DNA from: Chthoniobacteraceae bacterium
Lineage (GTDB): Bacteria; Verrucomicrobiota; Verrucomicrobiia; Chthoniobacterales; Chthoniobacteraceae
Length of the DNA stretch: 64,000 bases
Direction of reading: 5' to 3'
Assembly: GCA_037190965.1 (NCBI GenBank)
Contig: JBBCKI010000010.1
Span: forward strand, 62,229-126,228
Shown: in pieces, positions 6,621-58,617 of the stretch
Position numbering within the stretch: position 1 is the stretch's first letter
Layout: each line of letters begins with the position of its first letter
Notes under the pieces: generated by a model
What the model was told of the DNA's origin: nothing
Seen by the model: the letters and a program-made list of their open reading frames with translations, nothing else
Databases searched by the model: none
Made by a program: the position numbers and the translations under genes

Positions 6621-7377
6621 TCTTTTTTTCGCGCGAGTTGCACTGTTTTGCCTGTTGGCGTTGTTTCACACTGTCGGCCCTGTGCATGCACAGGCAGGCT
6701 CCATTCCTAACGGGTTCGAGACTGCCAACCAGGCTTATAGCCAGGGTGATTTCAAGGCTGCCCGCGAGGGCTATGTAGCTCTGATAAAGTCCGGACAGCG
6801 GAACGCCAATCTTTTCTACAATCTTGGCAACGCGGATTACCGCCTCGGTGACAAGGGCGCGGCGATTCTCGCCTACGAGCGCGCTCTGGCGCTGGATCCG
6901 TCGCACCCCGAGGCTCGGGCCAATCTGCAATTGCTCAGGAGCGAGACCGGGGCCAAGGTCGCCGAGCCTCTTTGGTGGCAGCGCGCGCTGGTCTGGCCTC
7001 AGGCCGTCACCCGGCAGAATGCAACCTGGATCGCCGCCGCCGGCTTTTGGGTGATCTGTTTCAGCGTCATTCCGGTGTTCGGGAAACGGCGTGGTATCGC
7101 CTGGATTCCCGCGGTGCTGGGGTTGGTGGCGCTCGCATGGGCAGGCGGCGCGGTGGCTTGGGAGGCCTCGCGGGGAGCCGCGTGGATCGTGACCGCAAAA
7201 GAGGGGCGTGCGCGCACCGCCCCGGCTGATACCTCCAAGTCGGTTGGGGTGCTTCCCACGGGCAGCGTGGTGCGTCTCATTCTGGAGCGCGGAGATTGGC
7301 TTTACGTCTTGCTTCCCGACGATTCGCGGGGGTGGTTCGCGCGGGGGGAGTTGGAGCCGGTTGCTCCTGGGGTTTAA
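6613..7377 (+). CDS. batE: BatE-like TPR + SH3-like protein
   Basis: Signal peptide, LFYNLGNA...AILAYERALALDP TPR, two TMs, C-terminal SH3b-like GW motif. Confidence 0.8.
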   Translation: MRNLFFARVALFCLLALFHTVGPVHAQAGSIPNGFETANQAYSQGDFKAAREGYVALIKSGQRNANLFYNLGNADYRLGDKGAAILAYERALALDPSHPEARANLQLLRSETGAKVAEPLWWQRALVWPQAVTRQNATWIAAAGFWVICFSVIPVFGKRRGIAWIPAVLGLVALAWAGGAVAWEASRGAAWIVTAKEGRARTAPADTSKSVGVLPTGSVVRLILERGDWLYVLLPDDSRGWFARGELEPVAPGV

Positions 7378-41463: not shown

Positions 41464-42573
41464 TTATTTGACTTGGCGGGTGCGCCCCGATCTTTCGAGC
41501 GTCGGCCGCGTCATCGACTGCCGCCACATAATTTCGCAGGGAAAAACGTGCTCTTCCTCACCCATTTTGGTGCCGCCGATCTGCTCCACAAGAAGATCCA
41601 TGGCTTTTCTACACATGGCTTCAGTGGGGAAGGCAACGGTTGTCAACGGCACCTTGCCTTCGGTGGTATGGGCAAGATTGTCGAATCCACTGAGGGCAAT
41701 CTTCTCCGGGACGTCGATGTTGTTCTGGAGGTAATAGGTCAAAGCTCCGGTCGCGTAGTCGTCATTCGCGAGGAAGAAGGCGTCGACCGATGTTCCCACG
41801 CGTTGGGCGGCTTCCCGGCCCGGAAGGAAGGGCCTGAACGCGATGATGGGTGACTCATCGTGAAGGATGACGGCCGATTTAAATCGAGTCTTCGGTTTTA
41901 CGTCACACAGGTCCAGATTGATGGGCGGTGCCCAACCGGCCTGCTCCAGGGCAGTTTGGAAGCCTTCGCAACGTTCGCGGGTTTGCCAGGCTGTGTAGTT
42001 CTCCTTGCGCACCAGAAGGGCGGGACGTTTGCGTCCCGAAGCGAGACACGATGAAACGAGGGTCGAGATAGCCCCTTTAATCCCATGGCGCACCCAAGGG
42101 GTCTTTGGTAACCCAAGATCGAGGCTGACAAGAGGGATTCCCGCTTCATGAAAACGGGTGAAGTCCATCTCGGTGGTTTGAGGGTTGCCTGAGACGATGA
42201 CTCCTTCGGGCCGCATCGCAATGACCTGATCGATAAGGCCATTGCCATTAACGCCCCACCAGGCATCGATCACCTGGTAGTCATACCCTAGTTCGTGCGT
42301 GAGTAGCCCGATCTGGTAGGCTTGGCGGTTCACCCATTCAGCCAGCACCCCCATGTTGAAAAAAATGATCAGATTGGTTCGTGCCCCGCGCATGATCCGG
42401 GCTGCGCGGTTGGGTTGGTACCCCATCTCCCTCGCCTTCTCCTCAACGCGGCGCACCGTTTCTTTGTTGAGATGCTTTCGAAGGGGCGATTTGTTGTTGC
42501 TCACAACCAGGCCGACCGTTGAGGCGCTAAGGCCCAAGGCTTTTGCGATGTCGGTGAGGGTAACGCGTTGCAT
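41464..42573 (-). CDS. LacI family regulator (paralog 1)
   Basis: TLTDIAKALGLSASTV HTH, GYQPNRAA, ND..A.G, GFDN, LTTV. Confidence 0.92.
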   Translation of the reverse strand: MQRVTLTDIAKALGLSASTVGLVVSNNKSPLRKHLNKETVRRVEEKAREMGYQPNRAARIMRGARTNLIIFFNMGVLAEWVNRQAYQIGLLTHELGYDYQVIDAWWGVNGNGLIDQVIAMRPEGVIVSGNPQTTEMDFTRFHEAGIPLVSLDLGLPKTPWVRHGIKGAISTLVSSCLASGRKRPALLVRKENYTAWQTRERCEGFQTALEQAGWAPPINLDLCDVKPKTRFKSAVILHDESPIIAFRPFLPGREAAQRVGTSVDAFFLANDDYATGALTYYLQNNIDVPEKIALSGFDNLAHTTEGKVPLTTVAFPTEAMCRKAMDLLVEQIGGTKMGEEEHVFPCEIMWRQSMTRPTLERSGRTRQVK

Positions 42574-42581
42574 TTTTTAAA

Positions 42582-42622
42582 GGCTCACAATGAGCCGATG
42601 CTTAGTCAATATTATTTTTGAC
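42582..42622. promoter_or_regulatory. Candidate promoter/operator of LacI paralog 1
   Basis: Palindrome GGCTCA-CAA-TGAGCC (42582-42596) and GTCAA...TTGAC; minus strand TTGAC..ATTGTGA shared with the paralog 2 upstream region. Confidence 0.5.
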
Positions 42623-42687
42623 ACTTTGGTCATCAATCAGTATTGCGGTTCATTGATAATGTAGGCGGCTTTGGAGTAAGTAATTGG

Positions 42688-43710
42688 CTAATCAACAAAG
42701 GAGAACAGGGAGCCTCGTTGAGCTTTTTTTGCCGCGGTAACCAATGTTTTGGCGATCGCGACATCGAGGGCTCCTGTTCCGATCGGAATGCATATGATGC
42801 GCTCTGCTTCGCTCGTGATCGTTTTGTGTCCGCAGGCCAATTCTCCGATAGTGGCGAAAATGTTCGAGGCGGTGATTTTTCCCTCCGCACTGAGTTTCTT
42901 CAGGACTCCGCGGTGAAGAGCCTGCTCTACGTGGTCGACGATGATCTTATCTGAGTTGACGATCAGGGCGTCTTCGCACTCCTGGTACGATCCCATGGGG
43001 AAGACAACAGTTCCGGGCTTGATCCACTCGTTTTTCAAAAATTGATCTTTGGCTTGGGTGACGGTAATCACCACATCGGCCTGGGCCGCCTCTTCCGGTG
43101 ATTCGACGATGATGATCTCTCCATCGACCCGGTTTTTGAGGTTCTCCTTGAATCGAAGAGCCGTTTCCCTGTTGATGTCGTAGACTCTGAGTTCCTTGAT
43201 GGAAAAGATCTCACTGATGGCTTCGACCTGGGTGTGTCCTTGCATCCCCGCGCCATAGATCCCGACGCTGATGGATTTGGGCTTGTTGAGATACATCAAA
43301 GCGACGGCGGTTTGCGCCCCCGTTCGAAGATTGGTAATGTGGGCTCCTTCCAGGATGCCGGTGAAGTTTCCTGTCCTTGGGTCGACCATCACAATCAATC
43401 CCGTGAGGTAGGGGAGCCCCAGCCTTTTTCTTTCTCCCAAAAAGCCGCCTACAAACTTCATTCCTGCTGCATCGAGGTGGCCGACGTAGGCGGGCATTGA
43501 GTTCATGAATCCCTCGTAAGGAGGATAGGCCGCGGTTTCTCCAAGGTCTAGTGTGACTTTTGTAGGGTTGATGGTGGTTCCCGTCCCGAGGCCCTTGAAT
43601 GTCTTATCGCAAATATCGATAACATCCTTCATCGTTATCAATGCCTTGATGTCATTCTGATTCAGGAGGAGGGTCTCTTCTGCGCGTTCGGAAGAATTTG
43701 AACTATTCAT
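42688..43710 (-). CDS. Ornithine cyclodeaminase / mu-crystallin family protein
   Basis: MPAYVG, ITNLRTGA, GAGMQG Rossmann motif, ADVV.T.T, G...LD.A.A. Confidence 0.88.
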   Translation of the reverse strand: MNSSNSSERAEETLLLNQNDIKALITMKDVIDICDKTFKGLGTGTTINPTKVTLDLGETAAYPPYEGFMNSMPAYVGHLDAAGMKFVGGFLGERKRLGLPYLTGLIVMVDPRTGNFTGILEGAHITNLRTGAQTAVALMYLNKPKSISVGIYGAGMQGHTQVEAISEIFSIKELRVYDINRETALRFKENLKNRVDGEIIIVESPEEAAQADVVITVTQAKDQFLKNEWIKPGTVVFPMGSYQECEDALIVNSDKIIVDHVEQALHRGVLKKLSAEGKITASNIFATIGELACGHKTITSEAERIICIPIGTGALDVAIAKTLVTAAKKAQRGSLFSFVD

Positions 43711-43714
43711 AGGG

Positions 43715-45205
43715 TCAAATGGATTCAAAAGGAAATAGGGGGCGGCGACGATGGTGGTAGGGGAGGGATTCCATATCCGCGGAGGTCATTCCGGGGGTGT
43801 TGACGCGGATAAGGGTGGGGCAGATTTCTTCAAAGCCCCCCACAGGGCCGTGGACTCCCTTGAGAATAATGATGTCGAACTCGCACGGGTTGATACCGCA
43901 GGAGAGCAATGGTTGTGCGCTTCCTGAAGTGACGATGCGATTGCTGCTAAGCATGAGAGTCAGACCTCTGTCGGTTTTTGCGACGATGGTTGGCCCCATG
44001 TCGCCGCCTGTTCTCCCGCCATGGATGGGCTTGGTTTCGGTGAACCTGCCATCATGAATGCTGATGACGGTGACTTTTGTTTTGATAGGAGGGGCAGGTG
44101 TCGACGCGAGCTTGCCCCCAATCTTCAGCAATACGCGGGCGCCGATGCCGGCGGTTAGCGCTGTTTTGACGCTCTCGGGATCAGCGAGGAAAAAGATGGT
44201 TCTGAATTGGCCAGACTTTTCGCAGAGCCGCGCGAGGACGGTGGAATCCCCCGGCGCGCCGCCCCCAAGGTTGTCGCCCATGTCGAGTAGGCCGACCGGT
44301 TTTTGGGCGGATTCAACGCGGGCAAAGGCGTCTTTAGGGGAAATCATTATTCCGCGAAAAAGCTCCCGGTTTGCGATCAACCAGGACTCAAGCCGCTCGG
44401 CCTCCCGTTGGGCGAGGTCGGGTTGATTGTCGGTGATCACGATGAATGCCGAGCCCATTTCGGGAACGTCAGCATAGGGAAATCCAAGCGCGACACTGGC
44501 GGATAGCACTCCGGGGATGGACCGGGTGGCCTCCAGTTCGCGTTGAAGGCTGAGCATCGGTTCTGCGCTTGTCAGTTGGCGTTCAATGTTGATCGCGACA
44601 CGGGGGAGTGCTCCTGCCATTACGGGGCGGATGTCTCCGTGCAGGGTTTTGACCATCAGGTTCGCCGCTTCGATCCCGCGCTGCCGCTGGTCAAGATGAG
44701 GGTTCTCCCGGTAGGCAGTGATCGCATTGCAGGCCAGAAGCATTTCCTGGGTAAGATTGGCGTGTGGATCGATGACGGCAATGAGCGGGAGCAAGCTTCC
44801 GATTTCTTCTCGCACCTTGCCGAGCAGCCATCCGTCCATATCCGTCCGTGATTCGCTGACGCCTGCGCCATGGGGGGCGATGAGGACGCCGTCCAGCGGC
44901 CCCGCCTTTTTGAGTTGATCTTCGATCAGCTCCCAAAGGACATCCAAAGTTGCATCGCTCACCTTTCCCCATGGCATTGCGTGAGCCATGATCAACGGCA
45001 CTGCTTCGACATCGGCCTCCTCTAGCGTCTGGAAGAAGCCGCTAACTTCGTGATGGGCATGGCTATACTTTTCCCTGATCTCTTCGCCAAGGAGAAAGAC
45101 ATACTGGCGAAAGTGGTCGAGCGTGGTCGGTTCGGGAATAAAGGTGTTGCTTTCGTGATGGATGTTGATGAGCGCTACGCGAAACTTTTTCGAGTCTGAT
45201 TTCAT
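43715..45205 (-). CDS. M81/MlrC family metallopeptidase (amidase)
   Basis: HESNTF, PHGAG, DPHAN, YR..PH.D, GFPYADVPEMG, DN.GGG.PGDST; no signal peptide. Confidence 0.88.
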   Translation of the reverse strand: MKSDSKKFRVALINIHHESNTFIPEPTTLDHFRQYVFLLGEEIREKYSHAHHEVSGFFQTLEEADVEAVPLIMAHAMPWGKVSDATLDVLWELIEDQLKKAGPLDGVLIAPHGAGVSESRTDMDGWLLGKVREEIGSLLPLIAVIDPHANLTQEMLLACNAITAYRENPHLDQRQRGIEAANLMVKTLHGDIRPVMAGALPRVAINIERQLTSAEPMLSLQRELEATRSIPGVLSASVALGFPYADVPEMGSAFIVITDNQPDLAQREAERLESWLIANRELFRGIMISPKDAFARVESAQKPVGLLDMGDNLGGGAPGDSTVLARLCEKSGQFRTIFFLADPESVKTALTAGIGARVLLKIGGKLASTPAPPIKTKVTVISIHDGRFTETKPIHGGRTGGDMGPTIVAKTDRGLTLMLSSNRIVTSGSAQPLLSCGINPCEFDIIILKGVHGPVGGFEEICPTLIRVNTPGMTSADMESLPYHHRRRPLFPFESI

Positions 45206-45239
45206 CGTATTGAACTGGCACCGTTGAAAGGGCGGCTTT

Positions 45240-46376
45240 TCACCGCTCGCCGATTGGAAGGGCGAGGACCGCCGGGGTGCGCGTGGCCGGGCGAACCTCG
45301 CCGGAAATGACGACACAAGAGTTTTGCCAGATTGTGGCGGCTGCTGCGCAGGTCGGTTCGGGGCCGGGGCTGGCGGTCTTCGTGGAGTCGATGTGACGCA
45401 CACACGGGAAGCTGGGCCCCTGCCGCCATTGCTTTTTGTTGGGGTTATAAATGAAAGTCTCCGAGTCGAAGCCGGGATGGTCTTTCAGTTCCCCGGTAAA
45501 TACATGGGCATACCCGCCAGTGATGAAGACTTCCCGATTCGGCATTGAGAATGCGCACGCTCCGGCTCGGGGAGCCGGGAGGGGAGGCAACAGCTCCCAT
45601 TGCCCTTGGCGGGGATCGAAGCGGTAGACGCTATCGCTTGTTTTGCGGAGGCCGGTTTTTCCGTCTGTGCTTGGCAGAATGGTCAATCCTCCGATGACGT
45701 AGAAGTGCTCGCCATCGGTTGCCCCAGCGGAGGCGAAGAGGCCCGGGCAGGGAAGATCGGCCAGTCTCTCCCACTCCATTGAGGAGGCGGGGCTATCGAG
45801 ATTTATCACCCAGCAGGAGTTGGTCGGCGCTGCCGAAAGCGCAGAGATTCCCCCTGCCAGATAGAGCCGCGAGCCTACCGTCGCGGCGGCGGTGAGGGCG
45901 AGTCGTTTGGGGAGCTTCGGCAATTCCTTTATCACAAGTTGGCCATCCAGCCATTGCAATTGGAGCACCTCATCCAGGCACTCTTTATCGTTCATCCCAC
46001 CGGCAACGATGACGGCGTCCCGGTAGGTCGCCGAAGCCATCAAAGATCTGGGGGTGGGCAGCAATTTATCCAGGCATCTCCATGGGCCGTCAGGCTGTTC
46101 CAGCAGATAGATGCGGGCGCTGTGGACTTTGTCTCCGCCTGCCCACAAAGGCTTGTCGGGGAACTGGCTGCCGCCGCCGGACAGAAGAACGCGCCCCTCG
46201 CCCGATGTCCCTGCAAACATCCCGGCAAATCCAATGGCGTCCGGAATCGGCGTGAACGGTTGCCACTGTTCCGAGGGCGTCGCCTCTGCGGAAGCCGCTG
46301 AGTCGGTGGCGGCGCTGCTCAGTTTGGGCATTGAGATCAAATTCAATGCCAGGAATCCTAAGATCGCGGCCTTCAT
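45240..46376 (-). CDS. Secreted Kelch-repeat beta-propeller (NanM-like)
   Basis: Signal peptide; GFAGMFAG, GG.QFP...GG.K, repeated GG..W..LP Kelch motifs, ISGEVRPATRTP C-terminus like NanM GE.RP. Confidence 0.75.
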   Translation of the reverse strand: MKAAILGFLALNLISMPKLSSAATDSAASAEATPSEQWQPFTPIPDAIGFAGMFAGTSGEGRVLLSGGGSQFPDKPLWAGGDKVHSARIYLLEQPDGPWRCLDKLLPTPRSLMASATYRDAVIVAGGMNDKECLDEVLQLQWLDGQLVIKELPKLPKRLALTAAATVGSRLYLAGGISALSAAPTNSCWVINLDSPASSMEWERLADLPCPGLFASAGATDGEHFYVIGGLTILPSTDGKTGLRKTSDSVYRFDPRQGQWELLPPLPAPRAGACAFSMPNREVFITGGYAHVFTGELKDHPGFDSETFIYNPNKKQWRQGPSFPCVRHIDSTKTASPGPEPTCAAAATIWQNSCVVISGEVRPATRTPAVLALPIGER

Positions 46377-47935
46377 TGCTCCGGCGTACGGGAAGCCGGC
46401 ACCGCTACGTTGGTCGGCGGGAGGGGAACTCTTGATCCTGGCAGGCTGAAGCTTTGCTGCTTTTCGTCGGGCGCTTCGAAAACCAGGCTGGCGAGTGTGC
46501 CGACGATGAAGGTCACCACGAACCCGGTGCACGCATACCACATAAACGAGACGGATGTCAAAAACCCGACGCAGAGGACCGCGATGAACCCTGAGATCGC
46601 GCCGATCAAGGTCCCGGCTCCGTTAGCCCTGCGGGAGCACACCCCGAGGAAGAAGATGCCCAACATCGGCCCGCCGAGAAATCCCGCGATTTTGTTGGAG
46701 GCCTCGACCAACGATCCCAGGCGGCCTACGACGAGAGCGAGGAGCGTCGTCGTCACCCCGAAAAAGACGGTCCAGATTCGCGCCGTGCGTACGCGATTTC
46801 TCTCCGAGGCTTCATCTTCATTGGCGTGAGGGCCTACATAGATGAAGTCCATCAGGGTGGCGGTGGTGAGTGAGTTGATCCCGGCGGAGACAGTGGACAT
46901 GGTTGCCGCGAGGATGGCCGCAACCAACAGGCCCGGCAGCGGGGCGCTAAGCCGGTGGCTCACAAAATGGGGGAGGACGCGATCGGCGCTCGACAGGGTC
47001 GCCAGCATCTCGGGATGCGTCTGGTAAAAGGAATAGAGGACCAACCCGGCGAAGTAGAACATCCCGAGCAGCGGCAACGAGAGGGCCAGCTTCCCCCACA
47101 GCGCGCGCCGCGCCTCTTTGACTGATGAGGCTGTTAGATAGCGCTGGACGGAGACCTGGTCGGTGATCAGCCCGGAAAGGCTAATGATGCAACCGCCAAA
47201 GAATGCGCCCCAGAATGTCATCCTTTTATTCAGGGAGGGGGTGAAATCAAAAAACTGCGTCCTGCCTCCTGCCTCCGCTACTTCCCAGACACCGGCCAAT
47301 CCGCCGGGAACACTCTTGATTGCGACGACCATGATAATGAGCATGGCGACGACAAAGACGGTAAACTGCATCACGTCGGTGTAGATGACGGCACGCATCC
47401 CGCCGATGGTGGTATAGAACAAGGTCGCGGCACCGGCCAATACAATCGACACCCAGAGCGGGAGACCGATCATTTCTGAAATGACCAGCGAGGGAGCATA
47501 GACAGCCAAGGCTAGCCAAAGGCTGCCACGGAAGATGAATGCCGCAGAGGTGATTCGCCGCAAGCGCAGACTGAAGCGGTGTTCCAGGTATTCATAGGCG
47601 GTAAAAAGGTTCTTTTTGAAAAAGAAGGGGATGAAGATGGTCGCAGTGATGGGAGTGGCGACCCAAAGGGCAACAATGCCCCACAGATAGACCAGGTTAT
47701 TCCCATAGATCTCAGCCGGTGCCCCGAGGAAACTGATTCCGCTGAAAAGCGCCGCCAGGATGGAAATCGCGATTAGCGACCAGTGCATTTGATGCCCGGC
47801 CAGCAGGTAGTCTTTGAGATTCTTCTGCTTCCCCCCGGCTTTGAGCCCCAGGTAAATGGAAAGGAAGAGATAGAGGGCGCAAACCAGATAGTCCCATTGC
47901 GAGATCGTGGTCTGGATGGAGGACGGGGAAGTCAT
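46373..47935 (-). CDS. Sodium:solute symporter (sugar/sialic-acid SSS type)
   Basis: About 13 TMs; S.ISFLG.P, AYEYLE.RF, GGMRAVIYTDVMQ, DQ..VQRYL, AATMST.S.GINSL. Confidence 0.9.
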   Translation of the reverse strand: MTSPSSIQTTISQWDYLVCALYLFLSIYLGLKAGGKQKNLKDYLLAGHQMHWSLIAISILAALFSGISFLGAPAEIYGNNLVYLWGIVALWVATPITATIFIPFFFKKNLFTAYEYLEHRFSLRLRRITSAAFIFRGSLWLALAVYAPSLVISEMIGLPLWVSIVLAGAATLFYTTIGGMRAVIYTDVMQFTVFVVAMLIIMVVAIKSVPGGLAGVWEVAEAGGRTQFFDFTPSLNKRMTFWGAFFGGCIISLSGLITDQVSVQRYLTASSVKEARRALWGKLALSLPLLGMFYFAGLVLYSFYQTHPEMLATLSSADRVLPHFVSHRLSAPLPGLLVAAILAATMSTVSAGINSLTTATLMDFIYVGPHANEDEASERNRVRTARIWTVFFGVTTTLLALVVGRLGSLVEASNKIAGFLGGPMLGIFFLGVCSRRANGAGTLIGAISGFIAVLCVGFLTSVSFMWYACTGFVVTFIVGTLASLVFEAPDEKQQSFSLPGSRVPLPPTNVAVPASRTPEQ

Positions 47936-47961
47936 TGGGGCGGGATGGACTGTTTCTCAGG

Positions 47962-50424: not shown

Positions 50425-51275
50425 GGCGTTACGCGATAGTTAGTGATGGGGATCACGCTTCTGAATACTCGTGCGCCCTTCTTGATGGGCGGGGGGAGGT
50501 TGCTAAGAAAAGAATCGACGTCGTCATCCATGAGGGAAGCATCGTTTCCGGTCGTGGGGGTGGGGAGCGTGATGACCGCGTCAATCGTTTTTTGGTCGAC
50601 GATCACCAGGACGACTTCCAGCGCTTTGGGGAGGTGGGCCTTGCTGCCGCCTTGAAGCGGCGGAGTGCGGGATGACCATTGGTAGAACGGCTGGTCCTTG
50701 TCATCAATCGCCCGAATCCAGAGGGCTAACGCGCCTTCAATGAGTAACCCTGGGTAGTTCGGAGCGACGGCGGAAGCCTTGGCGTCCAGGACGAGGGTTT
50801 TATCCAGCCATGCGGCGCTTGATTCCACAAGGTAGGCGGGGTCCGATGAATCGACTTGGAGACGGCACAACGTGCTTCGCGGGGGAGTCGAGGTGGTGTC
50901 CCTCCGAATGAAGTAACCCACGGTCGCGATGTCGCCGTTCGACAGTTCGGAGGCTACGGGTGCCTGCCAGAAGACGGAATGCGGGTTTTGCAGATCGGCG
51001 GTGATCCCTTTTGCGGTACTGGGATTGAGAACGAACTCGAGGCTGTTCTGTGTGGTCGGAACCACTGGCAGCAGGGCACCTGCGAGGTCTCGGCGCATCA
51101 TGTCGAAAACGATGCCGACCTTGTCAATGCGGTCGGCATCGGCCCGGGCCAATTGACCCAGCGCGTTGCTCTGCGAGATGGCTTGGAAGAAGAACCCGAC
51201 GAGGACAGAGAGGATGGCGGTTGCCACCAGGATCTCCACCAGGGTGAACCCTCGCTCTTTACGGGTGTTAATCAT
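50421..51275 (-). CDS. Verru_Chthon cassette protein C-like (PilW/GspJ-like prepilin)
   Basis: Class III signal RG|FTLVEILVA; H..FWQAP, .VGYF, LP..LEV....D. Confidence 0.8.
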   Translation of the reverse strand: MINTRKERGFTLVEILVATAILSVLVGFFFQAISQSNALGQLARADADRIDKVGIVFDMMRRDLAGALLPVVPTTQNSLEFVLNPSTAKGITADLQNPHSVFWQAPVASELSNGDIATVGYFIRRDTTSTPPRSTLCRLQVDSSDPAYLVESSAAWLDKTLVLDAKASAVAPNYPGLLIEGALALWIRAIDDKDQPFYQWSSRTPPLQGGSKAHLPKALEVVLVIVDQKTIDAVITLPTPTTGNDASLMDDDVDSFLSNLPPPIKKGARVFRSVIPITNYRVTP

Positions 51276-51711
51276 ATTTGCTAAGCAGCAGAGGAATCAC
51301 GAGTTTGTCTTTGGAGGTTTTCATTCCCATCTCCAGTCGGATGGTCTTTTTGTAGGGGGAACTGCCGGTGGGAGTCCCCGGAAGATCTCCGACGACTTCG
51401 GTTGCTTTACAGGTGTAGATGGCGTCGGTCGAAGTGCTGGCCACGGTCTTCCCATCGGTATCGAAATAGAATTCTTGGGCGGCGAGGGCGGAAGTGTTCC
51501 ACGCGGCGGCCTTCAGTTTCGTTGCGACTTCCTCGGCGAGATTGATCCAGATGACATCGCGTTTGGACTCCCGGGTTTGATCGAGAGTCAGCACGCTCAG
51601 GCCGAGAACGGCGATCACGCAGAAACTGACGATCCCGAGAGCGAGAGTGATTTCGACAAGGCTGAAGCCCCGGTTTGCATTGACGCGTGGTGGTGCAAGC
51701 ATGGCGATCAC
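51268..51711 (-). CDS. Verru_Chthon cassette protein B-like (PilV/GspI-like prepilin)
   Basis: RG|FSLVEITLALGIVSFC...LGL; FYFD.DG. Confidence 0.8.
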   Translation of the reverse strand: MIAMLAPPRVNANRGFSLVEITLALGIVSFCVIAVLGLSVLTLDQTRESKRDVIWINLAEEVATKLKAAAWNTSALAAQEFYFDTDGKTVASTSTDAIYTCKATEVVGDLPGTPTGSSPYKKTIRLEMGMKTSKDKLVIPLLLSKYD

Positions 51712-52391
51712 GGTTGGGAGAACTTCACCTGGCCGGTGGTCCCAATTAGCGAGAGGGTGATATAGTTGGTGGAGGCGCTTGCGCTGTTCTTGAGAATCGC
51801 GCCGTTTTCTAATAGCCCCGGGACGATCTTGAACGTGACGGTGGCCGGGCTCATCAGGCGTCCGTTCGGTTGAAAGACGTGGTAGTGATAGTCATTAGTG
51901 GTCGTCTGCATGACACGGATTTGCGCAGGCAGGGCAGGGGAGGGAAGTAGGAGGGGCGTGTCGAAGAAGGTGCTCGCAGCGTCATCAACCAGGACCCCTT
52001 CCGGAATCTGACGCCACACGGTGATCTGCTTCCAGTCATTCGAGGTGCGCGGAGCGCCATCCTCGGCGGCGCGGAGTTCGAATAGCGCGATCGAGCGAAG
52101 GCCGCGCTTCTCGGGCGCATTTTTTCCGAGGACAACGATAGCGGTGAGAACATTCTGCCCCAGCGAGTTCTGACGGGCCAGGGTTGTCATTCCCGAAATA
52201 AGATCGGCCGCCGTTTGAAGCTTTCGCGACTCGCTGGGTCCCTTGATCGCGGGGATCGTCAGGGCCATCAAGCCGGCCATGATGGCAATGACCGCCAACA
52301 GTTCCACTAACGTAAATGCCCGCCGCCCGGCACTGCGGTTTTGGAGGAAACCGCGTGCCGAAGCGACGTAAGAGAGCGGGATTGCATCCAT
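51708..52391 (-). CDS. Verru_Chthon cassette protein D-like (FimU/GspH-like prepilin)
   Basis: RA|FTLVELLAVIAIM; ARQ..L..N, F.P.G, N......TG pattern. Confidence 0.8.
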   Translation of the reverse strand: MDAIPLSYVASARGFLQNRSAGRRAFTLVELLAVIAIMAGLMALTIPAIKGPSESRKLQTAADLISGMTTLARQNSLGQNVLTAIVVLGKNAPEKRGLRSIALFELRAAEDGAPRTSNDWKQITVWRQIPEGVLVDDAASTFFDTPLLLPSPALPAQIRVMQTTTNDYHYHVFQPNGRLMSPATVTFKIVPGLLENGAILKNSASASTNYITLSLIGTTGQVKFSQP

Positions 52392-52432
52392 CGAGTTAAA
52401 GGGGGAAACGACGATTCAAGGGATCGAAGGCG

Positions 52433-53236
52433 TTACAGCGCTGGACGCCGCTTTCTCGTATAGACGAGGAGCGCGCCCGCACCCCCGCAGAGAAGCGCGA
52501 TGCTGGAGGGCTCGGGGATTACCTCAATATAGCCCGTTATTTCAAAGCCATCAATGGCCAGGTTGCTAGCTCCCGCTATCTGGAAACCGAAGCTGCGGGT
52601 GGCATTCACGCCATCCAACCAGAAATTTTCGGGATTCCAGGTGTATTGCTGATAATTCGGGGCTTTGGTCAGTGCGTTAAGGGCAGCTCCGCCGCCAACG
52701 GTTTTCTTGGCGTTGAAAACCGTGAAGACGTCTGTATGTCCCGCCGTTGTCTCCTTGAGTGCGATGGTCGGCGTCGCAGAGTCCGCAGTGGCGCTGTAGT
52801 AGGTGGCGTAAATTCTGACTGAGGTAATGACGAGCCTGATCTGAACATCATCCAGCGTCACACCGGGGCCAAGGAGGGTTGGGTCTCCGACCCATGAAGC
52901 GCCAATTGAGATGCTGAAGTTATCGGTTTTCCCCGAATAATTGGCGGAGCCATCAGGTGTGCTGATAAGGGTGCTTCCATCGAAATTTGGGCCAAAACCA
53001 GAATAGAATCCTCCGCCAATAGTCGGTTGAAACGTAAAGCCGCCATTCGTCGTAGCGCCGCTCGTCTTTAGTGCCCAGGTATTGGTGGCGGAGTTGGTCT
53101 GCGCCCCGTAACCGAAGGAGAAGTTCTGACTTTGCAGGACGGCGGCCTCCGCGGTCGGGGCAAAGGTGACAACGGCAGCGGCAAACAGGGAACCGATGAG
53201 CTTGGTTGAGCTTTCGAGTCTAATTGGTGTTTTCAT
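52433..53236 (-). CDS. PEP-CTERM sorting domain protein
   Basis: Signal peptide ending AEA; C-terminal IPEPSS + TM + RKRR. Confidence 0.9.
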   Translation of the reverse strand: MKTPIRLESSTKLIGSLFAAAVVTFAPTAEAAVLQSQNFSFGYGAQTNSATNTWALKTSGATTNGGFTFQPTIGGGFYSGFGPNFDGSTLISTPDGSANYSGKTDNFSISIGASWVGDPTLLGPGVTLDDVQIRLVITSVRIYATYYSATADSATPTIALKETTAGHTDVFTVFNAKKTVGGGAALNALTKAPNYQQYTWNPENFWLDGVNATRSFGFQIAGASNLAIDGFEITGYIEVIPEPSSIALLCGGAGALLVYTRKRRPAL

Positions 53237-53266
53237 TGGTCTGTGGGGGTTGATCTTTGGAGCGGT

Positions 53267-55033
53267 CTATTTTTTAGAGAGGGTGGCTTCGATCGCGGTC
53301 AGGCTGTCGAAGGCTTCGAGAACCTTTTTATGGTGGGCCTCATATGCAGCGCTCTCCCGGTTGAAGTCGCGCAGGTTGGGGACCAGGTGATTGACATTGA
53401 GTGCGCTCTTCGCATCGGCCAGCGTGGCTGCTTGTTCGGCGCTCAGGTTGCACTGGCTGAGTTTCTTTACCTTTTCGTCAAGGAGGTAGAGAAGGTCATG
53501 GTCTTCGAAGCCGTCCCGGAGGAGAGCGGCGCGGATCGAAGCAACCGGGACGGCATAGTTTTTCAGGTCGGGGTAGAAGAGGACGCCTTCGCCGACGTGG
53601 GTGTTGGAGGGGCTCATGTAGCCGCCGCGATCACGCCATGAAGTGATGTTCCAATAAAGGAAGCCGTCCAGACGGTTACGCCACGCCAGCGGGCCGAAGC
53701 ACCGCTGCGACGCTCCGGAGCGGTCAATAGGAGCGACATCGGGATAGGCGTGGGTGTGCTCGTGGAAGGTGCGCGTCTCGCAGATATAGGTCCAAGCTTC
53801 TTCGCCCTTCTTTTGGCGCTCCACGAGGAATTCCTCATAGCCGGGGTCGAGGTGGAGGCTTGGGAGATGTGGCACCCAGTTGAAGAGGGGATAGTCACGG
53901 GCCAGCGACCGCTCACGGCAATCGGTTGTCACCATGAACAGGGGGATGTTCGGGGCGTTCTGGTGGACGAAATTTCCGAGATCGCTAATGATCTTTGCGT
54001 TTTCCGGTTCGATGCTGGGTTCGTCGAAGGACTTAAAGGCAAAACGTTTTGTCCATCCGTTCTCCACAAGGTGGGCGTTCAATAGCTGGAGGATCTGCGC
54101 CTGGTCGTCCTCGGTGAGGTCCTGCCTCCAGCGGTGTTGGACCTTCTTGAGAACACGCGTCTCCGGGTCGGGTTGATACCAGTCCAGAGGAAGATAGGAG
54201 ATGTTGAATTGATTCCAGCCCTCTTCCAGCTTCTGTGCAATTTCCTTGTCGAAGGCGCTCCAATCGGCCTCCCATTTTCCGGCACTATTTCTGGTGACGG
54301 AATTTTTGAGAGACCGCACCAACCCGCCGATATCTGTGTTGGTGGGGTTCAAGCGATACCGAAGCATCTCGCGTAGAAGGGCAGTTTCCTTCTCCTGGTT
54401 CCATCGGCTTCCGTAGAACTCAGGCTTGTCGATCTCCCAGTCTCCGTACCCAAATGAAGTTTTGAGAATCCCTTGCTTTGGAACAACGGCGGAGAAGACC
54501 TTGATGGAGACTTTGATCTCCTGGGGGGCCTTGCTCCCCGTGTGAACCAGGATGCGCCCTTCATAGAGACCGGGAACGGCGTCGCGGGGAACCCAGACAG
54601 TGTACCAGACAGACTGTGAGGCTCCCTTCTTAACGTTGAAGGAATCCAGCGGGAGGAGAATATCGGGGTAGTCGCCTTTCTCGCCGAAGCCATCTTTAGA
54701 AGGGTGGTTGACCGGGACGTAGCCGACGAGGTTGACTTCCGGCCTCAATTCGTGGCCCTTGTCGGATTTTAGGTCGGTTGCCTCCACGGTGACCCCTGCA
54801 AGCTCGCCATCCAGCGCCGAGATGATAATCTGGCTGCTCTCCGCATCTCCCCGGGCGGCGAAGAGCTCCAGCCTGCTTGATGCGACGGCTGGTTGCTGGT
54901 CGCTTCTGAACTTGTCCATGGATGAGATCACGGAGACCCGGCTGGTCTCTTTTGCATGGAGAGGAGGAGAGGCGGGGCTGTTGCCGGCAATGGCCGCACT
55001 GGCCAGGATCGGCAGGAGGGAAGGGCGAATCAT
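53267..55033 (-). CDS. Secreted DUF4091 / GH123-like glycoside hydrolase
   Basis: Signal peptide; AARG..ES.Q, PD.L, W..VWVP.DA.PG.Y.G, FDEP, GFLYW, GEG.LFYP, SIR...LRDG.ED. Confidence 0.8.
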   Translation of the reverse strand: MIRPSLLPILASAAIAGNSPASPPLHAKETSRVSVISSMDKFRSDQQPAVASSRLELFAARGDAESSQIIISALDGELAGVTVEATDLKSDKGHELRPEVNLVGYVPVNHPSKDGFGEKGDYPDILLPLDSFNVKKGASQSVWYTVWVPRDAVPGLYEGRILVHTGSKAPQEIKVSIKVFSAVVPKQGILKTSFGYGDWEIDKPEFYGSRWNQEKETALLREMLRYRLNPTNTDIGGLVRSLKNSVTRNSAGKWEADWSAFDKEIAQKLEEGWNQFNISYLPLDWYQPDPETRVLKKVQHRWRQDLTEDDQAQILQLLNAHLVENGWTKRFAFKSFDEPSIEPENAKIISDLGNFVHQNAPNIPLFMVTTDCRERSLARDYPLFNWVPHLPSLHLDPGYEEFLVERQKKGEEAWTYICETRTFHEHTHAYPDVAPIDRSGASQRCFGPLAWRNRLDGFLYWNITSWRDRGGYMSPSNTHVGEGVLFYPDLKNYAVPVASIRAALLRDGFEDHDLLYLLDEKVKKLSQCNLSAEQAATLADAKSALNVNHLVPNLRDFNRESAAYEAHHKKVLEAFDSLTAIEATLSKK

Positions 55034-55098
55034 AAACAGAGATGCGATCGGGGAAGGGCGATGAGGCGGCAGTGAAGTTGCTTTTCAGGCTACCGTCT

Positions 55099-56196
55099 CT
55101 AGGGGAGGCTCCAGTTCACAAGGCCGGTGTGGTAGGATTCCAGGCCCTGTCCCAGGGAAGGGGATTTTTGTGCATAGAACGCTGTCAGAATGCTGCCGTC
55201 GGAGAGCTGAACGCTGTAGGGATAGCCGCCATCGCCTTTGTAGGAAGAGATTTCGAGAGCCGCTCCCCACGAAGCTCCGTTATCCTCGCTCAAACGAGCA
55301 ACGATGGCTCCGTAGGTGCGGATGCTGTAGCTAAGAAGAAGGCGGCCATCCTTGAGTTTGATGAGGCTGGCAGGGTGTTCGTTCCTTTGTGTGACGAGCC
55401 CTTCGTCGACCCAGGTGCTGCCGTCATCGGTGGAGCGGAACTGGCGCAGTTCTCCGCTATTGGGGGAGTCTGCAGGTGCGGTGCGCGCCATCGCGATCCA
55501 CTCGTTGTCGCCCAGGCGAATCAAGATGGTTTCATTCAGGGATTCGCCAATCTTGCTTTGAATGCCCCATGTTTTGCCGCCGTCGCGGCTGCTGAGCATA
55601 TACGATGAGGTGGGCCGATCGGAGGCTTCTCTATGGTAGGCGGCGAAACGCACCGAGCCATCGTGCGCCTGGATCACTGGGCCGAATGGGATGATGGTTT
55701 CCAGCGGTTGCAAGCCCGGATCGAGATCGGCTATCTTACTCCACGACTTGCCGCCGTCGGTCGATGCGCAGACGACTGAGGGAATGAGTGTCCACTTCTC
55801 GGTACTATTGATACCTTGTTTCGTATAACCGCTGATTGCTGCCACGAGGCGGGTGCCGTTGTCAACGAGGCCGATGGCGTGGTTCATCCGATTCGAGACT
55901 TCGTCCGGGCGAGGCTCGATGCTGGCGGAGCGGGTCCACGTCTTGCCTTCATCTTTGCTGATCCAGCCGTCCACCTCTCCTGCGATGGCACCATGTTTCG
56001 GTTTATTAAAGGAAGAGAGGAAAAGTGTGTTATTCGGGCCGTGGATCAGGTTCGGCCAGAGTCCTTCATTCTCGATAACTGCTTTTTGGGACTCGACGGG
56101 AATCGGTCGCGGTGCTCCGGGGGCGACTTCGACGGCCAGACTGGCCATGATGGGAAGCGCGAGGCTTAAGACAAGGGCGGGGAGGATGTTCTTCAT
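55099..56196 (-). CDS. Secreted BNR/Asp-box sialidase-like beta-propeller
   Basis: Signal peptide; five Asp-boxes (SKDEGKTW, STDGGKSW, SRDGGKTW, STDDGSTW, SEDNGASW); NE and DGGYP. Confidence 0.8.
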   Translation of the reverse strand: MKNILPALVLSLALPIMASLAVEVAPGAPRPIPVESQKAVIENEGLWPNLIHGPNNTLFLSSFNKPKHGAIAGEVDGWISKDEGKTWTRSASIEPRPDEVSNRMNHAIGLVDNGTRLVAAISGYTKQGINSTEKWTLIPSVVCASTDGGKSWSKIADLDPGLQPLETIIPFGPVIQAHDGSVRFAAYHREASDRPTSSYMLSSRDGGKTWGIQSKIGESLNETILIRLGDNEWIAMARTAPADSPNSGELRQFRSTDDGSTWVDEGLVTQRNEHPASLIKLKDGRLLLSYSIRTYGAIVARLSEDNGASWGAALEISSYKGDGGYPYSVQLSDGSILTAFYAQKSPSLGQGLESYHTGLVNWSLP

Positions 56197-56271
56197 ATTG
56201 GGGCGCGGGGGAGGGTTTGCTGAGTGGGGGATGGACGCTCTTTCGAGAAGAGGGGGAGAACGTGTTGAGAG

Positions 56272-57390
56272 TCAGAGGCTTAAATTGCGACTTCGTGAGG
56301 TGGAACTCCGGGCCTGTCTTGGTTTGGGCATCGAATTTCGCCAGATGATTTCGCAGGGAAATACGTGGCCCTCCGAGTCGAGTCTGGTACCCTCGATCTG
56401 GATGATGAGAAGCTCCATTGCCTTCTTACACATTGTCGCCACCGGGAAGGCGACAGTGGTAAGAGGCACGCTTCCCTCGGTGGTATAGGCAAGATTGTCA
56501 AATCCGCTGAGGGCGACCTGCTTGGGAATATCGATCTTGTTTCGGAGGTAGTATGTCAGCGCTCCGATGGCGTAAGTGTCGTTCCCCAAAATAAAGGCAT
56601 CCACCATCGTCCCAACTCGCTCCGCGGCTCGATGGCCCAGTTGAAAGGGTTCAAAGTGGCCGCTCGGGTGGGAGTCCTTCAGGATCACCGCCGGAGCGCA
56701 GAGGCTTCCGGGCTTCAGGTCGTTCAAATCGAACGTTTGCGGGACGGTACGACCCGCCGCTTTAAGGGCGTTGATAAATCCCGACACGCGCTCTCTGACC
56801 TGCCAAAGTTCGGGTGTTTCGTCCCGAACGAGCAGGGCAATGCGCTCGCGGCCGTTGCTGATGCAGGAAGTTGTCAGGTCGAAAATGGCACCCGCGACAT
56901 CGTGGCGGACACAAGGTGTTTCGGGGAGTTCGAGATCCAAAGTCACAAGGGGGATTCTGGCCCGGTTCAAGCGAGAGAAATCCATCTCTGCTTGTGGGTT
57001 TCCCGAGATAATGACCCCCTCCGGTCTCATGGCAATGACCTGGTCAATGATGCGATTCCCTTTCATGACCCACCAAAAGGCGTCAATGACCTGGTAGTCA
57101 TAGCCCAGCTCATGGGCAAGCATGCCAACCTGGAAAGCCTGGCGATTGATCCATTCCGCCATCCCGCCCATGTTGAGGAAGACGATCAGGTTTGTTCGTG
57201 ACCCACGCATCGCCTGAGCGGCCCGATTGGGCTGATAGCCGAGTTCCTTCGCCTTCTCCTCGATCCGGCGCACCGTCTCTTTGTTCAGGTGCTTCCGGAG
57301 GGGGGACTTGTTGTTGCCAACGACCAGACCAACGGTCGATGGGCTAAGCCCCAGCGCCTTCGCGATGTCCGTTTGTGTTGCTCGTCGCAT
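56272..57390 (-). CDS. LacI family regulator (paralog 2)
   Basis: TQTDIAKALGLSPSTV HTH; strongly similar to 41464-42573 along its length. Confidence 0.92.
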   Translation of the reverse strand: MRRATQTDIAKALGLSPSTVGLVVGNNKSPLRKHLNKETVRRIEEKAKELGYQPNRAAQAMRGSRTNLIVFLNMGGMAEWINRQAFQVGMLAHELGYDYQVIDAFWWVMKGNRIIDQVIAMRPEGVIISGNPQAEMDFSRLNRARIPLVTLDLELPETPCVRHDVAGAIFDLTTSCISNGRERIALLVRDETPELWQVRERVSGFINALKAAGRTVPQTFDLNDLKPGSLCAPAVILKDSHPSGHFEPFQLGHRAAERVGTMVDAFILGNDTYAIGALTYYLRNKIDIPKQVALSGFDNLAYTTEGSVPLTTVAFPVATMCKKAMELLIIQIEGTRLDSEGHVFPCEIIWRNSMPKPRQARSSTSRSRNLSL

Positions 57391-57402
57391 CTATTACAAG
57401 GT

Positions 57403-57439
57403 CACAATAAACGCCTTGAATCGTCAAGGATTTATTGTG
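57403..57439. promoter_or_regulatory. Candidate operator/promoter of LacI paralog 2
   Basis: Nested inverted repeat CACAATAAA-CG-CCTTGA-ATCG-TCAAGG-A-TTTATTGTG. Confidence 0.55.
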
Positions 57440-57820: not shown

Positions 57821-58279
57821 CTACGTCCTGCGTCGGCGAGAGAGGGCAAGGAGTGCGGCGCCCGCGCTGGCGGTCAAGCCGCAGGGGGAGGGTTCCGGAA
57901 TAACGGTGAGATCCTGGTAACGGTGATTGCCGGCCCCGTCTAAAATATATATGCGGCCCGAGGCATCGGTGGTGAGGTAGGGTACGCCGTCTGACCCAGT
58001 CGACGTAGGATCCACCGGCAGCATAAAGGCGACGAGAAAATTGCCGTCTGCAGCGTAGGTGGAACCGCCGCCCCCGTCGTCGCCGAGGTAAACGTTTCCG
58101 TTCACGCCGATGGCGAATTGGATGTTGGCGGTTGTGACGCCGGGATTGAGAGCAAACTCTGAGACCTAGGCGAAGCCGTTTTGCGGGTCGAGGACCTGCA
58201 TGCGGTTGTTACCGTAGTCGAGCAGGTAAACGAGGCCGTTGGGCCCGTAGCTGTGGTAGTGCGTATCCAAGCTGAACTC
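57821..58279 (-). pseudogene. NHL-repeat-like PEP-CTERM gene remnant
   Basis: Frame reads YGPNGLVYLLDYGNNRMQVLDPQNGFA*VSEF...IPEPS + TM + RRRR, with an in-frame TAG at 58168-58166 and no signal peptide. Confidence 0.7.
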
Positions 58280-58617
58280 CTTCGGCCCGGAGAGACCCGC
58301 CCGCGTAGTCTTTTTTGGTTTCGCCGTCGCGGCGTTTGGATTCGACTATCTTCTGCTGGTTCCGGGCGAACGGCGGGCGGGACGTTCGAGCTATCGCGGA
58401 CTTGGCTCACGGCCGGAGCTCGCCATCAAGAAGTGGGGACATGAGGTGGAGCGAGTCTTTCGGTTGGGCTGAAATGAACAGATAGAAAGGGGAGACTCCA
58501 AGCTGTCGTAAACTCCTGAAAATCAACGGTGACTCAAAGGCCGTGTTTCGTTTTTTGGAGCAGAAGGATTTGAATCGTGCACGGTCTTTGTTCGACGAAA
58601 GACCACTTCAAGCCAGT

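Follow-up and report, generated by a model that had tools for sequence, protein, structure and literature searches.

What do four genes for pilin-like proteins do inside a glycan-utilisation locus? The question is raised by a 64,000-nucleotide stretch of DNA (the window) from a Chthoniobacteraceae bacterium. The host is a soil-type Verrucomicrobium with a genome of 4.2 Mb. Re-reading of the open reading frame coordinates gave a minus-strand run of 13 tightly packed genes (41464..57390), taken as same-strand genes with every gap at most 130 nt. Gaps within the run range from -8 to +114 nt, and the order is LacI-1, BNR, GH123, PEP-CTERM, D, B, C, A, SSS, NanM-like, M81, OCD and LacI-2. The co-oriented, tight run from one LacI gene to the other described in the original prediction was thus borne out.

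Domains of the locus proteins were called by Pfam and NCBIfam profile searches with the curated NCBIfam cut-offs; all genes named below are on the minus strand. The LacI-family regulator LacI-1 (56272..57390; Peripla_BP_3 8e-22 plus a LacI HTH) opens the run and its 66% identical paralogue LacI-2 (41464..42573) closes it. LacI-1 is followed by an exported BNR/Asp-box protein of the sialidase superfamily (55099..56196; BNR_2 3.5e-23), whose N-terminus resembles a signal peptide and whose matches to sialidases among PDB sequences (1e-10 to 1e-3) indicate distant kinship. The next gene encodes a GH123-family beta-N-acetylgalactosaminidase-like hydrolase (53267..55033; GH123_cat 1.7e-15 plus GH123 N-terminal domains; PDB 8k2j, E 9e-24). 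A small PEP-CTERM protein of 267 aa (52433..53236; TIGR02595 22.4 bits, cut-off 16) precedes the pilin-like genes; it has no further domain recognised by Pfam or NCBIfam and one paralogue elsewhere in the genome. Downstream of A, after 26 nt, starts a sodium:solute symporter (SSS, 46373..47935; SSF 5e-44) whose PDB matches include the sialic-acid transporter entry 5nv9 (2.8e-53). The gene originally predicted as Kelch does encode an exported Kelch propeller (45240..46376), which we refine to a NanM/YjhT-like mutarotase (NANM 2.8e-21; TIGR03548 1.2e-30, below cut-off; YjhT 2uvk at 6e-9). The run continues with an M81/MlrC-family metallopeptidase-like protein without a signal peptide (43715..45205; DUF1485 3e-84, MlrC_C 3.6e-37) and an ornithine cyclodeaminase/mu-crystallin family enzyme (OCD, 42688..43710; OCD_Mu_crystall 1.7e-49). 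Among the 13 proteins, Pfam detected no TonB-dependent receptor or SusD-type family, as had been predicted, and the genome carries one TonB-dependent receptor, on another contig. No DHDPS-family (NanA-type lyase) gene was detected among the same 13 proteins by Pfam; one is present in the paralogous K15 locus.

The D, B, C and A genes overlap or abut. D (51708..52391) is GspH-like, with a TIGR02596 match of 1.5e-12 (48 bits, cut-off 70) and weak GspH/GspG matches, and B (51268..51711) is GspI/PilV-like (TIGR02598 61.4 bits, cut-off 51.4; PilV 1.7e-5). C (50421..51275) is GspJ-like (N_methyl 5.6e-8; GspJ models 4.9e-7 and 3.3e-5) and matches TIGR02599 at its N-terminus only (37.9 bits, cut-off 256.5). 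A (47962..50424) encodes a giant cap pilin of 820 aa that matches TIGR02600 at 3.5e-44, with 151.1 bits in four matched stretches of a 1296-position model (cut-off 332.3); five A paralogues elsewhere in the genome pass this cut-off. The profile check thus found the predicted quartet, catalogued in NCBIfam as Verru_Chthon proteins A-D (TIGR02600, TIGR02598, TIGR02599 and TIGR02596), a family without an assigned function. Four adjacent pilin-like genes in the order D-B-C-A, in multiple copies in Verrucomicrobiota, are common to both, but here A is short, C matches at the N-terminus only and D falls below the cut-off. Since B alone exceeds its curated cut-off, we regard this set as a divergent short-cap subfamily of the Verru_Chthon cassette. 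A literature search returned no paper naming this cassette or linking Verrucomicrobia, minor pilins and polysaccharide utilisation.

Prepilin N-termini are evident in D (RRA/FTLVE), B (G/FSLVE) and C (G/FTLVE), all three with N_methyl/TIGR02532 matches, and A begins with a pilin helix that lacks Glu5 (G/SALII). A further comprises a helical insert and, at residues about 351-520, a beta-sandwich that is hypervariable. The sandwich has a majority fraction of 0.36, compared with 0.46-0.50 elsewhere in A, and holds seven of the 11 large insertions. Pfam gave no family for A at E<=0.01, T2SSK models included, and Foldseek gave no match at E<=0.001. VIA-align comparison of the AF2 model of A (pLDDT 89.4) gave middling matches to ComZ (Z 8.0, 121 aligned residues), GspK (Z 6.9, rmsd 14.7) and XcpX (Z 5.8), and the same fold search also gave EpsH (Z 5.2). 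A tblastn scan of 64 related loci detected D in 43, B in 36 and C in 56. Taken together, D-B-C-A looks like a complete GspH/I/J/K-type minor-pilin tip set with a giant, fast-evolving cap, and its four products would be expected to form a tip complex.

The setting of the cassette is conserved. Two other species, in which A is 47-49% identical, retain LacI, GH123, BNR, PEP-CTERM, D-B-C-A and SSS (loci L068 and L069). Their LacI-1 orthologues are 41-50% identical, the PEP-CTERM gene adjoins D in both (37-39% identity), and the SSS orthologue immediately follows A in L069. M81, OCD and the second LacI copy were not kept with the module in these two loci.

At least 15 paralogous tip sets are present in this genome, most of them each in a sugar locus of its own. 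By permutation in this genome, a LacI-family gene lies within seven genes of 7/15 cassettes (random mean 2.5, p 0.006), a PEP-CTERM gene within the same distance of 9/15 (random mean 3.2, p 0.0006), and both near 6/15 (random mean 1.1, p 0.0004). With in-house gene calling, Pfam family names and 100 control genes, CAZyme-type families accounted for 28 of 197 cassette flank genes versus 5 of 100 random genes (odds ratio 3.1, p 0.018). Each of the three gene types is enriched about 3-fold beside cassettes (p 0.0004-0.02). Sugar regulators recur in a second genome, G153, where a Peripla_BP_3 regulator is found at most 15 kb from 8/15 cassettes (random mean 2.0, p 0.00035) and GH/CE/PL/CBM families occur within ~7 kb of 11/15. 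In five loci (K9, K11, L050, L057 and L062) an inner-membrane sugar transporter abuts the cassette with a gap of at most 26 nt. This association is a strong tendency but not a rule. Two of the 15 cassettes here (K12 and K13) sit in housekeeping contexts without sugar genes, five of seven annotated 'blank' loci elsewhere have non-glycan neighbours (phosphatases, efflux pumps, DUF1501/PSCyt genes or TonB-dependent receptors), and genome G123 has only four LacI-type regulators versus about 14 cassettes. The conserved module and the enrichment near LacI, PEP-CTERM and CAZyme genes support a link between the cassette and glycan use, and its membership of a sugar-regulated glycan-utilisation cluster rather than a locus of pilus machinery.

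An imperfect palindrome of 37 nt (57403..57439), a candidate operator, lies close upstream of LacI-1. Its core is a 16-nt perfect palindrome, CCTTGAATCGTCAAGG (57414-57429), and this 16-mer occurs once in the genome. Three quarters of the core recur as the 12-mer CCTTGAATCGTC (52410..52421, minus strand) inside the 41-nt gap between the PEP-CTERM gene and D. The 12-mer has three copies in the 4.2-Mb genome versus ~0.5 expected, two of the three in this locus. We interpret the palindrome and the gap 12-mer as a candidate shared operator. From gene spacing and these motifs, D-B-C-A would be co-transcribed with an operon that targets a glycan of the amino-sugar or sialic type and is probably regulated by the same LacI-type repressors.

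Which machine could such a tip serve? No GspC-G or GspL-M machinery family was detected among the 13 locus proteins or the other 35 window proteins scanned, and no PilY1-type adhesin (as in the type IVa priming complex of FimU-PilVWX plus PilY1) among the locus proteins. Other contigs of this genome carry two complete T2SS loci, both with their own GspH-K, and a PilM-secretin pilus locus without minor pilins. The latter is of the same type as Akkermansia muciniphila MUL2 (Amuc_1098-1102) and encodes an Amuc_1102-like protein (7dsz, E 2.7e-5), PilM_2, an Amuc_1100-like protein (6kny, E 1.7e-9), a secretin and CoaE; MUL2 proteins are unrelated to cassette proteins A-D. The genome also holds an orphan PilB/PilC, again without minor pilins, four PilT-like ATPases and one prepilin peptidase. 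By elimination, we infer that the cassettes work with the MUL2-type machine. Mucin accumulation by Akkermansia is reported to require pilus-associated MUL genes (PMC13174399 and PMC12418764), and Planctomycetes have fibres to which dextran binds (PMC5394234).

Four pilus-tip genes in a sugar-regulated operon suggest a possible route to glycan capture or to export of the digesting enzymes. We consider it probable, at roughly three in four, that the cassette provides a locus-specific tip serving glycan acquisition. The operon would supply the exported sialidase-like BNR protein, the GH123 hydrolase, the putative surface PEP-CTERM protein, a periplasmic NanM-like mutarotase and the SSS importer. 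When substrate is present, the locus would equip a shared, type-IV-pilus-like fibre machine with a tip specific for that substrate. This machine could consist of the MUL2-like PilM-secretin system, the orphan PilB/PilC and the PilT-like ATPases, none of which has its own minor pilins. In A, the variable beta-sandwich may bind the glycan, and retraction may carry the glycan up to the outer membrane or across it; there the exo-hydrolases of the locus would trim it and SSS would import the sugar. This full chain of binding, retraction, trimming and import falls somewhat short of even odds. The hydrolases belong to exo-acting families and their products could pass porins, so that the cell need not import polymer. 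The best structural match to A, ComZ of Thermus thermophilus (PDB 6qvi), is likewise a minor pilin of large size into which a beta-rich domain is inserted, and it works at the tip of a pilus whose retraction draws a linear polymer into the periplasm. Unlike in such DNA-uptake type IV pili, the proposed ligand is a glycan and no competence genes lie nearby; the match covers the pilin core only. In Myxococcus xanthus, alternative minor-pilin/PilY1 clusters are interchangeable tips for one type IVa pilus machine under different conditions; its three tip sets each have a separate PilY1 adhesin and lie outside catabolic operons. The original prediction of a polysaccharide utilisation locus analogue 'instead of SusCD' is supported in part, as regards membership of a sugar locus; glycan capture or import by the tip, alone or together with the PEP-CTERM protein, is a proposal. 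The likeness to Bacteroidota loci lies in a substrate-specific, regulator-controlled cluster of surface proteins, glycoside hydrolases and an importer, but the SusC/SusD pair is missing from the locus, and its replacement is an analogy of logic only.

The same data fit T2SS-like export or surface display of the locus enzymes. The cassette would then be an alternative GspH-I-J-K tip that adapts a T2SS to the BNR, GH123 and PEP-CTERM proteins, with extracellular digestion and entry of sugars via porins and SSS. The H-I-J-K gene order is typical of T2SS, as is the helical insert of A, so a secretion role fits these features equally well. With the T2SS tip GspH-GspI-GspJ-GspK (PDB 3ci0, 5vtm and 4dq9), the cassette has in common the prepilin N-termini on three small proteins, a cap without Glu5, weak family matches to GspH, GspI/PilV and GspJ, and the middling fold matches to GspK, XcpX and EpsH. 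Signal peptides are present on the enzymes of the locus, PEP-CTERM is the most enriched neighbour of the cassettes and adjoins D in the orthologous loci too, and PhoD and phosphodiesterase genes adjoin the cassette at L084. Substrate-dedicated, co-regulated T2SS exist, such as the Pseudomonas Hxc system. A published proteome places an induced pseudopilin within an alginate-induced cluster, for which its authors propose T2SS export of the alginases (PMC13274419). However, both canonical T2SS here already own normal-sized GspK proteins (293 and 303 aa) that match T2SSK_1st; A is 2.7 times as large and misses the T2SSK models. The cassette also differs from a T2SS tip in having no machinery nearby and in occurring as fifteen orphan sets per genome, apparently under sugar regulators, and the caps, at 800-1400 residues and with their hypervariable insert, resemble ligand-binding heads more than piston tips. 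We know of no orphan minor-pseudopilin sets for T2SS. On balance, we regard this secretion role as rather unlikely, although it is the strongest competitor of the chain of glycan capture and uptake.

Two further readings appear much less probable. Substrate-induced pili could serve adhesion only, fixing the cell on particles or surfaces rich in glycan and taking no part in transport or secretion. Large, variable caps would suit this, and alternative minor-pilin/PilY1 sets on one Myxococcus pilus offer a parallel. MUL2 is interpreted as an attachment device of particle-associated Akkermansiaceae in PMC13174399. Adhesion and capture look alike to computation, but cassettes sit inside catabolic operons, which points to a step in a catabolic pathway, and in five loci they are closely coupled to inner-membrane sugar transporters, in some cases with overlap, which also argues against adhesion alone; we consider it improbable. 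Slightly less probable still is that generic pilus genes gathered in flexible, CAZyme-rich regions and that adjacency reflects hitch-hiking. This genome is rich in sugar loci, with 46 LacI-family genes, and at 5 CAZyme-type genes per 100 about half of random 14-gene windows would contain one. Integrase or transposase genes adjoin K2, K4, K10 and L126, and K12, K13 and several loci elsewhere lack sugar genes. Against this stand the ~3-fold enrichments (permutation p 0.0004-0.006) and their replication in G153, the operon-like embedding of K9, K10, K11 and K15 in this genome, the retention of the whole module in two species at ~50% protein identity, and the 12-mer common to the palindrome and the PEP-CTERM-to-D gap.

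Within locus-specific glycan acquisition, a bolder and doubtful extension by analogy is that one retractile MUL2-type machine takes the Verru_Chthon cassettes as interchangeable heads, each specific for a substrate. This machine would reel glycans in, up to the outer-membrane secretin or through it, in the way that competence pili reel DNA, and each sugar locus would bring its own head and its own repressor. If so, the cassettes would define a TonB-independent 'glycan-uptake pilus', which could be the outer-membrane step that is still missing for selfish uptake of polysaccharides by Verrucomicrobiota, and perhaps by other PVC bacteria.

The locus is a single same-strand run of 13 genes on the minus strand (41464-57390), in which gaps range from -8 to 114 nt and every gap is at most 130 nt. 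Pfam and NCBIfam identified, in order, a LacI-family regulator (LacI-1), a sialidase-superfamily protein (BNR_2), a GH123 hydrolase, a PEP-CTERM protein of 267 residues without further domains, the four Verru_Chthon cassette proteins D, B, C and A, a sodium:solute symporter (SSS), a NanM/YjhT-like Kelch propeller, an M81/MlrC-type peptidase-like protein, an ornithine-cyclodeaminase-family (OCD) enzyme and a second regulator, LacI-2, with 66% identity to LacI-1. The gene list of the original prediction was therefore correct. The GH123 protein resembles solved beta-N-acetylgalactosaminidases (8k2j, 9e-24), the PDB matches of the SSS include a bacterial sialic-acid transporter entry (5nv9, 2.8e-53), and a PDB sequence search matched the propeller protein to YjhT. 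Sialidases are only distant relatives of the BNR protein, and no NanA-type lyase was found among the 13 proteins scanned. N-termini resembling signal peptides are carried by the BNR, GH123 and propeller proteins and absent from M81 and OCD. Judging from sequence similarity, that the substrate would be an amino-sugar or sialic-type glycan is a reasonable guess and nothing firmer.

Elsewhere in the window, positions 57821-63069 (minus strand) hold a PATR-repeat protein of 1447-1483 aa ending at 58618, followed by three short ORFs on the same strand but in different frames (58523-58774, 58102-58410 and 57821-58105), the last of which carries a PEP-CTERM-like tail. Together, these may reflect either a frameshift in the C-terminal part or a misassembly. 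The window also contains an aerotolerance-type BatA-D/VWA/DUF58 operon (94-7377) and a stretch of ordinary housekeeping genes (7606-39724) with one PATR/PEP-CTERM protein (27894-29936) and no cassette near.

A 37-nt palindrome (57403-57439; core CCTTGAATCGTCAAGG) lies directly upstream of the LacI-1 start, and 12 bases of its core recur at 52410-52421, in the 41-nt gap before D. About 0.5 copies of this 12-mer would be expected in the genome; three are present, two of them being the palindrome and pre-D sites. The third copy (position 337 of contig C29) was rejected as a related site, as the genes beside it are unrelated. The palindrome and the pre-D 12-mer could possibly be a common operator, a match found post hoc and only a lead. 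Site scans gave 7 promoter-like sites versus 5.5 in shuffled sequences and 24 terminator-like sites versus 20.1, neither above the shuffles.

The gene order of the cassette is like that of GspH-I-J-K in type II secretion systems (T2SS). D, B and C carry class-III signal sequences (A|FTLVE, G|FSLVE and G|FTLVE, respectively) and weakly match models of GspH/GspG, PilV/ComGE and GspJ; A begins with a hydrophobic pilin-type helix in which Glu5 is absent. Only B reached its curated NCBIfam cut-off, with D below it, C matching its model at the N-terminus only, and A, a short form of 820 aa, scoring 151 bits versus a cut-off of 332. By these sequence measures, the D-B-C-A proteins here are best classed as a divergent subfamily of the Verru_Chthon cassette. 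A confident AlphaFold2 model of A from a 60-sequence alignment (pLDDT 89.4, pTM 0.88) has a 64-residue N-terminal helix, beta-sheets at either end, a helical insert and a beta-sandwich. A Foldseek search of this model against the PDB returned nothing at E<=0.001. The top chain from an exhaustive structural aligner was Thermus ComZ (Z 8.0 over 121 aligned residues); GspK scored Z 6.9 but with an rmsd of 14.7, XcpX Z 5.8 and EpsH Z 5.2. These middling fold scores and the H-I-J-K-like order support, but do not prove, the view that D-B-C-A would form a minor-pilin tip set with a giant cap. The A family comprises 1191 cluster representatives at E<=0.001, and its least conserved part is the beta-sandwich (about residues 351-520), which has a majority fraction of 0.36 versus 0.46-0.50 elsewhere and holds 7 of 11 large insertions. 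One related locus (L118:9989-15926) has two tandem A copies (949 and 1007 aa) with near-identical N-termini behind one D-B-C set.

No related locus was found with A alone as the query; an alignment query for A retrieved 64 from many Verrucomicrobiota assemblies. Two of these, in Chthoniobacteraceae and Chthoniobacterales MAGs (A identity 49% and 47%), both keep LacI, GH123, BNR, the small PEP-CTERM protein, D, B, C, A and the SSS, which is directly behind A in one of them. NanM, M81, OCD and the second LacI are missing from this conserved module. No other single observation argues as strongly for joint action of the cassette with the hydrolases and the transporter as the survival of this module at protein identities near 50%. 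In five loci, a sugar transporter of the inner membrane adjoins the cassette at a gap of <=26 nt: at K9 and K11, two cassettes of the source genome, and at loci L050, L057 and L062. The small PEP-CTERM proteins adjacent to cassettes in three genomes were rejected as one family, their BLAST likeness being limited to the C-terminal anchor. The sole paralogue of the PEP-CTERM protein of this locus (C72:25438-26208 in the source genome; jackhmmer E 5e-117) has another LacI-family gene (28223-29260) two genes away, with no cassette detected there.

TIGR02600 matched 16 places in the 4.2-Mb source genome. We dropped one 167-residue open frame without a called gene and counted 15 cassettes (K1-K15), one of them cut by a contig end. 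Within 7 genes of the cassette (own gene caller, 5000 random placements), a LacI-family gene was found for 7/15 cassettes (random mean 2.5, p 0.006), a PEP-CTERM protein (by regex) for 9/15 (3.2, p 0.0006) and both for 6/15 (1.1, p 0.0004). CAZyme-type families (GH, CBM, SASA, BNR_2, DUF4838 and GxGYxYP by Pfam name, not dbCAN) accounted for 28 of 197 flank genes, spread over 12 of the 15 cassettes, versus 5 of 100 genes in 20 random five-gene blocks (odds ratio 3.1, p 0.018). The per-cassette count alone is weak, because a 5% base rate puts one such gene in about half of random 14-gene windows. Enrichment of cassettes beside LacI and CAZyme genes, for which the original prediction had proposed a test, was found, with small controls behind these tests. 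Operon-like runs with sugar genes surround K9, K10, K11 and K15. K12, which has a PilB/GspE-type ATPase at a distance of 5.5 kb, lies in housekeeping surroundings, as does K13, and both count against the glycan reading. K15 sits midway in a second, fuller sialic-type operon (C47:11029-27923; loci L026 and L027), in which genes for an FAD oxidoreductase, a DHDPS/NanA-like protein, an SSS, a LamG protein, two BNR_2 proteins and a nucleoside hydrolase precede D-B-C-A, followed by PfkB, a SASA esterase and then a PEP-CTERM gene. The dropped frame (C38:18782-19033) aligns with the cassette-A model at positions 938-1027 only and, on that sequence match, may be a cassette remnant; a second M81/MlrC paralogue (C38:10014-11531) lies about 7 kb away.

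TIGR02598 proved a poor census tool, exceeding its cut-off in only 4 of 201 sampled genomes of the phylum, with most matches being pilin N-termini; three of the 201 had 13-18 matches each. In G153, a complete 3.76-Mb genome from another family, a Peripla_BP_3 regulator is found no more than 15 kb from 8/15 cassettes (p 0.00035 against a random mean of 2.0), and GH, CE, PL or CBM families occur within about 7 kb of 11/15, a raw count without a random control. At the remaining four, the neighbours are regulators (LacI, GntR-PBP or IclR), PATR/PEP-CTERM proteins or sugar transporters. G123, another Verrucomicrobiota genome, has only 4 Peripla_BP_3-type regulators versus about 14 cassettes; at five sampled loci, ECF sigma or two-component regulators adjoin the cassettes, and GH5, a sulfatase fragment or NagA/NagB-like genes are near three of the five. 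Across 42 related loci of at least 19 kb, tblastn found a sugar regulator in at least 18, a CAZyme homologue in at least 17 and any marker in at least 29, lower bounds from a limited query set, for which a valid background is lacking since some query genes also occur in the control blocks. Of eight loci without a marker, seven were annotated, the eighth being a near-duplicate; two of the seven were glycan loci, and the neighbours of the other five are TonB-dependent receptors, an RND pump, PhoD/phosphodiesterase genes or DUF1501/PSCyt genes. The association thus has exceptions but is strong.

The source genome encodes five long PilB/GspE-type and four PilT-like ATPases, four to five secretins, one exosortase and a single prepilin peptidase adjoining a PilT-like pair. 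Each of its two canonical T2SS loci has its own GspG/H/I/J/K, with GspK proteins of 293 and 303 aa that both match T2SSK_1st. Another locus (C18:14545-22434; L136:1068-8957) has the same layout as MUL2, the pilus-like locus Amuc_1098-1102 of Akkermansia muciniphila, with genes for an Amuc_1102-like protein (7dsz, 2.7e-5), PilM_2, an Amuc_1100-like protein (6kny, 1.7e-9), a 316-aa protein, a secretin and CoaE, and no minor pilin genes. G153 and G123 have one long PilM_2 gene each. As both T2SS are self-sufficient, elimination makes it more likely that the orphan cassettes would serve the MUL2-like machine and orphan ATPase/platform pairs. TonB-dependent receptors number 1 in the source genome, 7 in G153 and 10 in G123, and the lone receptor was judged unlikely as the uptake route for 46 sugar regulons.

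A functional link between the cassette and glycan use is supported. At the outer membrane, either the exported enzymes of the locus would cross outward or the glycan would enter, and the cassette is plausibly the sole locus component able to act there. We favor, at a probability of about 0.4, a mechanism in which glycan would be captured by cassette heads, each specific for its substrate, on a retractile fibre that the cassettes share. Akkermansia mucin accumulation requires MUL genes for pilus-like proteins, according to PMC13174399 and the review PMC12418764. Planctomycetes take dextran into the periplasm and it binds their fibres, for which the authors speculate a role (PMC5394234). Export or display of locus cargo ranks close behind capture, and we consider it somewhat unlikely. 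A PulG-like pseudopilin gene occurs in an alginate-induced cluster for which the authors propose T2SS export (PMC13274419). A complex predicted for residues 45-816 of A and the mature form of the PEP-CTERM protein, computed without controls, scored 0.00, which weighs neither for nor against their association.

Adhesion alone, in which a pilin tip would bind without import or export, ranks below export and seems improbable. The absence of any functional link ranks last and is quite improbable; cassettes in housekeeping surroundings sit on its side, and the neighbourhood statistics and the conserved module on the other. Literature searches returned no paper on 'Verru_Chthon', related phrases or TIGR02600, and none linking Verrucomicrobia, minor pilins and polysaccharide utilisation.

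Members of the Verrucomicrobiota and Planctomycetota play a major part in breaking down complex glycans in soil, water and gut habitats. To our knowledge, both phyla are largely without SusCD/TonB, the route to which uptake in Bacteroidota is attributed. The four-gene family, catalogued but unstudied, is embedded in individual sugar loci, with many such cases per genome and across several lineages. This makes the cassette a concrete, testable candidate for the outer-membrane crossing of glycans or large enzymes and places about 1,200 protein clusters in a functional setting for the first time. Where genomes lack SusCD, the cassette could be used as a practical marker of substrate-specific loci.
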